Below, piece after piece: positions 61,504-64,000 of a stretch of 64,000 bases of DNA. Within the stretch, counting starts at the first letter, position 1. Each line of letters begins with the position of its first letter. The notes below the pieces were generated by a model, which saw only the letters and a program-made list of their open reading frames with translations, was not told the origin of the DNA and searched no databases. The stretch is from NCBI RefSeq assembly GCF_988243305.1, contig NZ_OZ547136.1; one strand, given 5' to 3'. The position numbers were made by a program, and so were the translations under genes.

Positions 61504-63153
61504 ATGAGCGCGATCACATTACGTAAAGCGTTAGGTGTACTTGCGAAGTCATCTTCGTTTTCCGTAACCACAGAAACTCATCGGCAAAAGGATGTGTTCG
61601 ATGAGCTAAAAGAACAACTCTTTGTTAAACAAGAGATTGAAGAAGAGTTACAGCGTTATCTGGATACAGCTACTCCCGGTGAGATCATTTTTCTATGCGG
61701 AAGTAGTGGAGACGGGAAATCCGAAATTTTAACCCGCTGTAAGTCAGATCCACAATATCAACAGAAGTTTAGTTTCCATCTGGATGCGACACATAGCTTT
61801 GCGCCTCAACAATCGGCTATCGATGCACTGAATGATTTATTTGAAAATCATCATTCGCAATCATACCCGCTCCTCATCGGTATCAACACCGGGATGCTAG
61901 CCAATTTTGCCAGAGAAGGTTCTGAGTCCCATATGGCTATCCGTGCTGCTATTGACTCATTCTTGTCAGCGCAACAGGAAGGCCAGCGTCCTTACCGCAA
62001 CGAAAATTGTATATTTTTTGATTTCGAACATTATCCAAAGTTCGAGTTTGACGAAGAGCGGGAATACTCCCCTTTTATCAAAAAATTAATGAATCAATTA
62101 ACGGGGAATGACGACAAAAACCTGTTTTACACAATTTATCAACGTGATGAATCAATAGGACATGATTTAAAAACCGTTGCTAACTTTAAACTACTGTGCA
62201 TGCCCGGTGTTCAGAATGTTTTAATAACACAGCTATTTAAAGCCCGATTAATAAAAGATCAATTTGTTACCACAAGAACCTTATTGGATTTTTTACACCA
62301 CCTGCTGACAGGGCCTGGGTACCTGTTTGATAATCTGTTTAATGGTGCAGAGAATGATCTAATTAAAAAGGTTTCTGATTTTGATCCTGCCAGATTGCAT
62401 ACATACGAGATTGATCAATTTATTTTGCGCTATGAGCTTGGATTAGTTGATCCCGAACTGGATGATTTTCTGAGTACACTTGCGAAATTACATCTTACGT
62501 TTGATCGTCAATGTGTTAAGCCTGGTGACGCAGCTTCATTAATTAGACTTTTCTGGCTACTACAACATGAATCTTTAGGGAATAACTATCACAAAAGGTT
62601 CTCTGTATTCTTTAAAGAAGCGCTCTTTGAGCGTTATTCAGAGATTTGGCATCTGCATAAAAACTATACCGCAGATCCGGAACAAAAAAGAACACTAAAC
62701 CGCTTTTACTCTTTCGAGCTTATCGCTGGTATTCAGCGTTACGCAAACCGTAAAGCACCTGAACTGAGTACCCAAAAAGAAGAGTTCTTTTTAGGCGAAT
62801 TTGGTGGGATTAAAATCACAGCACCTGTTGCGCTGAAACCGGACTGGGATTCAATTCTCAAGAAAAATACAGCCCATACAACTTGTTTCGATATCTATTT
62901 AAAAGTAGGACAAGATCCGCTAGATCCGATTCGGATCGGTCTTAATTTATTTGAGCTATTGAGCAAACTAAATAATGGCTATCGCCCTAATAAGTATGAT
63001 AAAAGTGCGATTGTCTTACTGGACGAAATCGTTGAACTAATCGCAGAAAAGGCAAAATCCAGCAGCGAAATCAAGTTTTATGATGGCCTAAAGCGGGTCT
63101 ATAGTGCAAGAGCGGACGATGACATGATTACTATCAGCGGCATGGAGGGATAA
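61504..63153 (+). CDS. uncharacterised P-loop NTPase (549 aa), first cargo gene of the leuX island
   Basis: Walker A GSSGDGKS at residues 66-73 (nt 61699-61722); AT-rich relative to core genes; no family recognised from memory. Confidence 0.8.
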   Translation: MSAITLRKALGVLAKSSSFSVTTETHRQKDVFDELKEQLFVKQEIEEELQRYLDTATPGEIIFLCGSSGDGKSEILTRCKSDPQYQQKFSFHLDATHSFAPQQSAIDALNDLFENHHSQSYPLLIGINTGMLANFAREGSESHMAIRAAIDSFLSAQQEGQRPYRNENCIFFDFEHYPKFEFDEEREYSPFIKKLMNQLTGNDDKNLFYTIYQRDESIGHDLKTVANFKLLCMPGVQNVLITQLFKARLIKDQFVTTRTLLDFLHHLLTGPGYLFDNLFNGAENDLIKKVSDFDPARLHTYEIDQFILRYELGLVDPELDDFLSTLAKLHLTFDRQCVKPGDAASLIRLFWLLQHESLGNNYHKRFSVFFKEALFERYSEIWHLHKNYTADPEQKRTLNRFYSFELIAGIQRYANRKAPELSTQKEEFFLGEFGGIKITAPVALKPDWDSILKKNTAHTTCFDIYLKVGQDPLDPIRIGLNLFELLSKLNNGYRPNKYDKSAIVLLDEIVELIAEKAKSSSEIKFYDGLKRVYSARADDDMITISGMEG

Positions 63154-63157
63154 CATC

Positions 63158-64000
63158 ATGTATCCCATTGCAACAAATTTAAAAGTTAGTAATAACCAGC
63201 TGGATAGCTACCTTCCAATACGTAATAAGAATAACAATATTGACTGGCAAATCGTCACAGGTTTAGTACTGAGCTATGCCGTGAAGTATAAAATCGATAC
63301 ATACAGTCTCGAGCAGTTTCGCGAGGATTGTAAAACTCATCTGCAAATATTGATCGATGAACCTGCGTTCTTGTCCGTGCTGGAACGGATGTATTTTTCC
63401 AGTCAGGATATTTTTCGTGTCTCCCCGCTGTTCTTGCTGTTCCACGCTCAGTTTGATGGTGAAAAGATAAGTGCAGGCTCGACTGCCGACAAACGCCTTG
63501 GAACACTGTTTGCCAATTTGATGAGAGATTTTAGCCTTAATAACCCGATACAAGATAAGTTGAATTTTATTGAAAAAGAGATGCTGAATAAGCTCAATAA
63601 AAAATTAATCCGACTGGGTGAGGGGCCATTTGCAAAAGAACAACCTTATTTACCCTATCTGGTAACGTGTTTTCAGTCTGATTTGGCGTTTCTGGCAGAG
63701 CACCCACAATATCTTTTGCAGGAGCTGACCAATACTCTACGTTTGTATGCCTTTAGTTGGTGCGCACAACTGGCGCTCAATCTGGACAACTGGCAAGACG
63801 GCGAGCCGCAGAGTAAATCATTGTTCTTTATTCTCGATACTGAAAAAGCTAGCTCCGAACGAGATAAAATAAAGCTCTTCGGCTATAAGTGGTTTGCCCG
63901 CCAAAGTGAAAAATTATTCCCCGTACTCTCTGCATTAGAGGTATTACAAGTAAAAGGTGAGGAAAAGCGCCCTCTTTGGCAGGTATATCAAGATTGCTTA
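63158..64000 (+). CDS. uncharacterised protein, partial (at least 281 aa, continues beyond window), translationally coupled to the upstream NTPase
   Basis: ATG at 63158 lies 4 nt after the upstream TAA and 8 nt after a GGAGG RBS; the frame is open to the window end (MYPIATNLKVSNNQLDSYLPIRNKNNNIDWQIV...); AT-rich. Not in the ORF track because no stop is reached. Confidence 0.75.
   Translation, partial: MYPIATNLKVSNNQLDSYLPIRNKNNNIDWQIVTGLVLSYAVKYKIDTYSLEQFREDCKTHLQILIDEPAFLSVLERMYFSSQDIFRVSPLFLLFHAQFDGEKISAGSTADKRLGTLFANLMRDFSLNNPIQDKLNFIEKEMLNKLNKKLIRLGEGPFAKEQPYLPYLVTCFQSDLAFLAEHPQYLLQELTNTLRLYAFSWCAQLALNLDNWQDGEPQSKSLFFILDTEKASSERDKIKLFGYKWFARQSEKLFPVLSALEVLQVKGEEKRPLWQVYQDCL

Follow-up and report, generated by a model that had tools for sequence, protein, structure and literature searches.

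What do the two tightly coupled genes that follow the leuX integrase encode? The 64,000-nucleotide stretch of DNA analysed here (the window; contig NZ_OZ547136.1 of assembly GCF_988243305.1) ends within the second of them. An earlier note presented the pair as an uncharacterised P-loop NTPase with a partner, a candidate novel system that could equally be unclassified, and offered as a side hypothesis a restriction module that depends on phosphorothioate and opens with a DndF/DptF-type gene. It is the side hypothesis that prevails, through matches of the two genes to the TIGR03238 and TIGR03236 families and to PADLOC models, and through the identity of their products to proteins of E. coli B7A. 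The region very probably opens the dptFGH (dndFGH) restriction operon of a B7A-type Dnd phosphorothioate restriction-modification island at leuX, with dptF complete and dptG present for its 5' two-thirds. Judged by its proteins, the dptF-dptG pair belongs to an already known system, is protein-identical to that of the model strain B7A, and represents no new system; the sole residual uncertainty is whether the dpt copy stays intact beyond base 64000.

Genes and setting of the leuX island

The dnd/dpt genomic island is inserted at the leuX tRNA gene, which marks its attL side; the features that follow the tRNA gene in the window are collected in Table 1.

Table 1. Features of the leuX end of the dnd/dpt island
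Feature	Position	Strand	Evidence or location
leuX, tRNA-Leu(CAA)	59742..59826	+	ARAGORN; Rfam tRNA 59.4 bits
Tyrosine-type (P4-like) integrase, 422 aa, first gene of the island	60026..61294	+	ORF, NCBIfam, B7A identity
AT-rich intergenic spacer, 209 bp, GC 39.7%	61295..61503	+	upstream of dptF
dptF (= dndF), 549 aa, P-loop NTPase subunit of the DndFGH restriction complex	61504..63153	+	TIGR03238, PADLOC, B7A identity
dptG (= dndG), codons 1-281 of 441 before the window ends, DNA-binding (triple winged-helix) subunit	63158..64000	+	TIGR03236, PADLOC, B7A identity

The order is that of an integrative island: a tRNA gene is directly followed by a tyrosine integrase and then by low-GC cargo, as the earlier note had it. 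GC falls to 35-44% from position 61500 onwards and averages 39.9% in dptF and 41.5% in the visible part of dptG, against 50.4% for the entire window. The low GC of the dpt genes (40% vs. 50%) fits horizontal acquisition, and the earlier note is borne out in its view of the pair as defence cargo acquired next to an integrase at leuX. The integrase scores 280.6 bits with the NCBIfam integrase domain NF007246, under the model cutoff of 434, and its protein is 100% identical to WP_001219052.1 of B7A, annotated as a tyrosine-type recombinase/integrase, and to the integrase of strain SW071610. E. coli dnd islands of 53-59 kb have been described at the leu tRNA site, with an integrase as the first gene and dptFGH upstream of dnd (Ho et al., 2015; PMC4373003). 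In B7A, the 22 kb downstream contain no attR (a directly repeated 3' end of leuX); the end of the island probably lies further away.

The two cargo genes are organized as the earlier note described them. The TAA stop of dptF (63151-63153) is separated by four nucleotides, CATC, from the dptG start codon, an ATG preceded at a distance of 9 nt by GGAGG; from there, the dptG frame stays open for 843 nt and translates without stops to the window edge. The 4-nt gap, the GGAGG and the match of gene 2 to TIGR03236 together show the dptF-dptG coupling of the restriction operon. The dptF frame is far beyond chance expectation, given its 549 codons at 40% GC, its 81-83% protein identity to two other E. 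coli alleles and its invariant Walker A motif, and the minus-strand ORFs at 63255..63553, internal to dptG, have no support. The dptFGH promoter presumably lies in the spacer upstream of dptF. A consensus promoter/terminator scan of positions 59600-64000 finds no plus-strand sigma-70-like site upstream of dptF; promoter-like sites number five in this interval, vs. 8.2 expected from shuffles.

Identity of DptF and DptG

The product of gene 1 matches the NCBIfam equivalog TIGR03238 (DNA phosphorothioation-dependent restriction protein DptF) with 439.4 bits, against a cutoff of 50; the match runs from residue 32 to residue 544 and covers profile positions 1-501 of 504. The PADLOC DndF model PDLC02674 scores 779.9 bits. 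The protein is 100% identical to B7A DptF (WP_001274541.1) and equally to DptF of SW071610, and dptF is the RefSeq label in all close matches. The top PADLOC match for DptF, REase_II (PDLC03556; 1103 bits, with protein and profile aligned over all their 549 positions), was set aside: we take this label for a generic Type II restriction-enzyme tag on the same family and not as evidence that DptF is the nuclease.

The nucleotide-binding site is readily seen. The translation contains the Walker A motif that the earlier note had placed at residues 66-73, G66-S-S-G-D-G-K72-S73; three E. coli alleles, at 81-83% identity, share it unchanged, and a canonical Walker A is reported for DndF (PMC10853773). 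DndF has been described as a derived P-loop kinase in which an Asn replaces the Walker B Asp, the helical lid spans about 200 residues and the C-terminal alpha+beta domain evolves fast (Rakesh, Aravind and Krishnan; PMC10853773). A hydrophobic strand ending in Asn128, P122-LLIGIN-T129, is likewise invariant across the three E. coli alleles, and LLIGIN128 is, in our reading, a plausible Asn-type Walker B.

A Pfam scan of DptF yields nothing significant (the top match, RsgA_GTPase, has an i-E of 0.021), and a PDB sequence search with DptF returns 0 relatives: Pfam is without a DptF family and the PDB without a solved DptF structure. This is probably why the C-terminal region of the protein could not be placed in the earlier note. 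The Pfam blank explains the failure of placement and is not evidence of novelty.

The N-terminal 281 residues of gene 2 score 142.5 bits with the equivalog TIGR03236, DptG (cutoff 20), and 375.2 bits with PADLOC DndG. These residues are 100% identical to DptG of both B7A and SW071610; the C-terminal 160 residues fall past the window. Full-length B7A DptG matches residues 1-441 of PDB 7EXX chain A (E = 1.1e-296), a solved structure deposited as 'DNA phosphorothioation-dependent restriction protein DptG'. With its triple winged-helix make-up, DndG is a relative of SspB and of the FokI recognition module (PMC10853773). PADLOC also matched DptG to mad7 and DptH to mad8, MADS-system relatives; both were dropped in favour of the DndG and DndH models, which give higher scores, and in view of the 100% identity to B7A.

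Relatives and the genes beyond the window

Because the window ends within dptG, dptH and dndBCDE are placed from near-identical genomes. Megablast of positions 61300-64000 against 5426 complete E. coli genomes finds matches in 224, all chromosomal and none on plasmids: dptF and dptG are accessory and chromosomal in E. coli. Among the matches listed, 16 complete genomes, B7A included, match this interval over its full length at 99.9% identity or more, and six are 100.0% identical to it, all with the complete downstream 13 kb. The DNA of the interval is 100% identical to SW071610 and 99.9% to B7A, and dptF and dptG are annotated in both. SW071610 is the nearest complete genome, with 7 mismatches in a 22.7-kb overlap and 99.9% identity over 25 kb. 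B7A has 99 mismatches in 22.7 kb and differs slightly in flanking core genes; the source strain is therefore distinct from B7A.

The annotated order in B7A and SW071610 is leuX-int-dptF-dptG-dptH-DUF262-nuclease-dndE-D-C-B, then an IS3 fragment and the fec operon, with dndE, dndD, dndC and dndB on the strand opposite to dptFGH. In these strains, dptH encodes 1687 aa and shares its first 20 nt with the end of dptG; the B7A product scores 2832 bits with PADLOC DndH. A 401-aa DUF262 protein and a 536-aa ATP-dependent nuclease follow dptH in the B7A-type island, and dndBCDE lies 8-13 kb downstream in B7A, SW071610 and SE11. Past position 64000, the operon most likely continues with dptH, the DUF262 gene and the ATP-dependent nuclease gene, and is then met by the convergent dndEDCB: among the matches listed, 12 of the 16 genomes at 99.9% identity or more carry the B7A-type 13 kb downstream, including dptH, at 99.8% identity or more. 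The dptF-dptG pair sits at leuX in B7A, SW071610 and the SE11 type.

Intact operon or truncated remnant

The four genomes 210221272, ZF34, ZF31 and HCP30S3_I2, again among the matches listed and within the 16 at 99.9% or more, have dptG annotated as a pseudogene. All four strains come from swine. In each, IS1A cuts dptG after codon 289, the associated deletion reaches the fim/gntP region and dptH is absent, while dptF is kept as a full-length ORF. The window could belong to just such a decayed remnant, with an intact dptF, a dptG pseudogene cut by IS1A about 25 nt past the window, dptH, the dnd genes and the fec/fim region deleted, and no functional restriction system. Precisely this arrangement is known from the four complete swine genomes, and the inverted repeat of IS1 begins at what would be window position 64026, 25 nt past the window end, where the window alone cannot discriminate between the two states.

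The remnant is nonetheless unlikely. The two truncated strains used for comparison, 210221272 and ZF34, share the substitutions 61834 G>T and 63832 T>C, and each has a variant DptF; the window has neither substitution, and its DptF equals that of B7A exactly. Among the matches listed, the six genomes with 100.0% identity across 61300-64000 are all complete downstream, and the flanking 25 kb are 99.9% identical to the intact SW071610 as compared to 98.6% to the truncated strains. With the SNP pattern of the intact group and without the two SNPs of the truncated lineage, the window favours an intact system. The two states part shortly after the window end. A continuation that runs into CGAGTACTAAATGAACTC would mark the intact state and one that runs into CGAGGGTAATGACTCCAAC the IS1 junction: the stretch GGTTATTCAGATACATCGAATCGAG past 64000 is common to both, after which TACTAAATGAACTC would mark an intact dptG and GGTAATGACTCCAAC the IS1A-truncated remnant.

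It is very unlikely that the state past 64000 is neither the intact B7A type nor the IS1 deletion (e.g., a new cargo swap after dptG), or that an orphan, intact DptF is kept for a stand-alone role as a nucleotide-sensing P-loop kinase of the kind proposed in PMC10853773. The dptF retained in the IS1-truncated strains is compatible with a stand-alone role and equally with a recent deletion.

Mechanism of the DptFGH system

For the intact operon favoured here, the mechanism may be assembled from what is published on related systems. DndBCDE and the host cysteine desulfurase IscS would swap a non-bridging phosphate oxygen for sulfur at a fraction of the host GAAC/GTTC sites; the modification characterised elsewhere is an Rp-phosphorothioate, written by DndBCDE at a minority of these sites, with IscS in the place of DndA (PMC6435447). 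DptF, DptG and DptH, in a 2:2:1 ratio, are expected to form an ATP-powered complex that moves along DNA and introduces nicks. PMC11662687, citing Wu et al. (2022, Nature Catalysis), describes DndF2G2H1 in this way, as a 2:2:1 translocating nickase whose nicking is coupled to translocation. Within the complex, DptF would bind nucleotides through a derived, kinase-like P-loop module that has a very large helical lid and a rapidly evolving alpha+beta domain, DptG would bring three winged-helix DNA-binding domains, and DptH a restriction-endonuclease fold joined to a HerA/FtsK-type translocase; in DndH, the REase fold is accompanied by a captured HerA/FtsK translocase (PMC10853773).

Self DNA would be spared through repression: phosphorothioate marks would inhibit ATP hydrolysis and translocation by the complex, and phage or plasmid DNA devoid of marks would be damaged. 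Repression of the DndFGH ATPase, and hence of translocation on self DNA, by GpsAAC/GpsTTC phosphorothioate is reported in PMC11662687 and PMC10853773, both citing Wu et al. (2022). DndFGH restricts phosphorothioate-free DNA, and the loss of modification in its presence leads to DNA breaks and the SOS response (PMC6435447); restriction of DNA lacking phosphorothioate at GAAC/GTTC and self-toxicity upon dnd deletion are described for Cerro 87 and B7A-type systems (PMC6435447, PMC11662687). Phages fight back: a T7 gp0.7-like kinase that phosphorylates DndFGH acts as a counter-defence (PMC12345140).

The biochemical role of DptF is disputed; the Walker B Asn has been taken to suggest that it senses nucleotides instead of acting as a motor (PMC10853773). 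Rakesh, Aravind and Krishnan (2024) proposed a model in which DptFGH is a stand-alone invader sensor and restriction machine, phosphorothioate is an optional discriminator, and the kinase-like P-loop pocket of DptF senses modified nucleotides derived from phage. Their model draws on the phyletic decoupling of DndFGH, which often occurs without Dnd modification, from DndABCDE and on the Asn, the large lid and the fast-evolving domain of DndF (PMC10853773); the invariant P122-LLIGIN-T129 segment, if it is an Asn-type Walker B as we infer, would agree with it. The nucleotide sensor is a computational prediction only, whereas restriction depends on phosphorothioate status and dnd deletion brings self-damage (PMC6435447, PMC11662687), and dptFGH adjoins dndBCDE in every intact B7A-type relative examined. 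As an account of the present locus, the stand-alone machine is extremely unlikely.

That the pair is an uncharacterised ATPase and partner forming a novel, unclassified defence system has virtually no chance of being right: its appeal lay in a gene 1 that lacks a Pfam family and a PDB relative and whose C-terminal 450 aa look orphan by sequence alone, and it is already refuted by the curated NCBIfam equivalogs that both genes pass, the PADLOC DndF and DndG matches, the RefSeq names dptF and dptG and the 100% identity of both proteins to B7A, on top of extensive published genetic, biochemical and structural work on the dptFGH/dnd system (PMC6435447, PMC10853773, PMC11662687; PDB 7EXX).

For the preferred reading, an intact B7A-type island, the practical consequences are direct. 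The source strain is very probably Dnd-positive, which implies phosphorothioate at GAAC/GTTC and DNA degradation in PFGE; as such, it would very probably restrict unmodified plasmids and phages, which bears on its transformability and phage susceptibility. The value of sighting dptF and dptG here is one of annotation, not discovery. The debate over the role of DptF, a protein with no solved structure and no Pfam family, is a field-wide question and not one specific to the window.

Comparison with known systems

The closest known system is dndBCDE-dptFGH of B7A, the strain that gave the first characterisation of phosphorothioation in E. coli (PMC6459556). It shares with the window DptF (549 aa), DptG residues 1-281 and the integrase at 100% protein identity, as well as 99.9% of the DNA, the position after leuX and the 4-nt dptF-dptG spacing; within the window, the two systems do not differ. 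The main model for genetics and biochemistry is DndFGH(I) of Salmonella enterica serovar Cerro 87 (PMC6435447, PMC11662687, PMC12345140), where the same arrangement of three restriction genes is coupled to IscS-DndBCDE and GpsAAC/GpsTTC marks. Compared by architecture, the two diverge after dptH, where Cerro 87 has dndI (DUF262 + HNH; PMC11662687) and the B7A type a separate DUF262 protein and an ATP-dependent nuclease.

Two other E. coli types, SE11/55989 (at leuX) and 32F4 (elsewhere), keep the same gene order; their DptF proteins are 81-83% identical, with Walker A and LLIGIN invariant, and their DNA is about 78-80% identical to the window alleles. The accessory genes between dptH and dndE are unlike those of the B7A type: SE11 has a 'restriction endonuclease' and a hypothetical gene, and other alleles have DGQHR proteins. 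The integrase is degraded in SE11, and in 32F4 the neighbours of dptFGH are AbiE toxin-antitoxin and HTH genes.

In the SspABCD-SspE and SspFGH systems, phosphorothioate likewise serves as the self mark, and SspB shares the triple winged-helix module with DndG (PMC10853773). These systems differ in their single-stranded CpsCA modification and in their effector proteins, and the window genes are not in that family. The mark also acts in opposite directions: it stimulates the SspE NTPase, whereas it represses the DndFGH ATPase (PMC11662687).

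dptF start and dptG interruption

In four swine-derived E. coli genomes, a B7A-type dptG is interrupted by IS1A after codon 289; the deletion in these genomes takes out dptH and fec together with the dnd genes and a portion of fim, and leaves a full-length dptF ORF. At the other end of the gene pair, dptF has no clear Shine-Dalgarno sequence before its ATG, and a scan of the 209-bp spacer upstream found no sigma-70-like promoter on the + strand. A three-codon mini-ORF (ATG AAG TTA TGA, window 61497-61508) shares an ATGA overlap with the dptF start codon.

Coordinates of features in the window and in related E. 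coli loci
Feature	Location	Strand	Remarks
IS1A junction in dptG	L004 20725-20760 (IS1-truncated locus)		Same in L005 (IS1-truncated locus); 25 nt past window edge, equivalent to window 64026
Two genes downstream of dptH	L001 28225-31031 (B7A locus)		Outside window; translationally coupled to dptH
dptH-dndE content, B7A type			DUF262 + nuclease
dptH-dndE content, SE11 type	L006 12079-13555 (SE11 locus)		"Restriction endonuclease" + hypothetical gene
dptH-dndE content, other E. coli dnd islands			DGQHR-domain proteins
Candidate cysQ, 246-aa ORF	Window 772..1512
519-aa ORF	Window 38888-40447	+	At the position of a pseudogene annotated in SW071610
Magnesium riboswitch	Window 30867-30982	+	Rfam RF01056, 125.8 bits
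naRNA4 (n = 4)	Window 14499-14577, 20740-20817, 47530-47605, 47626-47701	+	RF02564, 67-86 bits; core-genome intergenic
Ysr276	Window 48535-48729	+	Rfam, above gathering score, 180 bits
ES239 sRNA	Window 583-705	+	Rfam, above gathering score, 154 bits
STnc450	Window 4057-4114	-	Rfam, above gathering score, 77 bits

Core genome

The 246-aa ORF is taken as cysQ because SW071610, the nearest complete genome, has a cysQ of the same length annotated there. This candidate lies ~390 nt from the position predicted by simple collinearity with the SW071610 locus (L003), and at least one indel must therefore separate the two sequences within window 1500-41000. At the position of the window's 519-aa ORF, the SW071610 annotation gives a frameshifted "DNA-binding protein" pseudogene of ~530 codons, which adjoins argF. 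Among the RNA elements, the magnesium riboswitch is ordinary core-genome content; it is found upstream of the mgtA position expected from a related genome's annotation.

The dptH-dndE interval

E. coli dnd islands differ in what they carry between dptH and dndE, apparently an interval where accessory effectors are exchanged. The B7A DUF262 protein (401 aa) has NsnA as its top PADLOC match (113.6 bits), with PD-T4-2_A weaker, and the ATP-dependent nuclease (536 aa) has matches to HEC-04, ATPase-Toprim and GajA-like proteins. A literature search found no paper on this pair, which might constitute a second effector pair reading phosphorothioate. In Salmonella Cerro 87, the place occupied in B7A by the DUF262 and nuclease genes is held by dndI, which encodes a DUF262+HNH protein.
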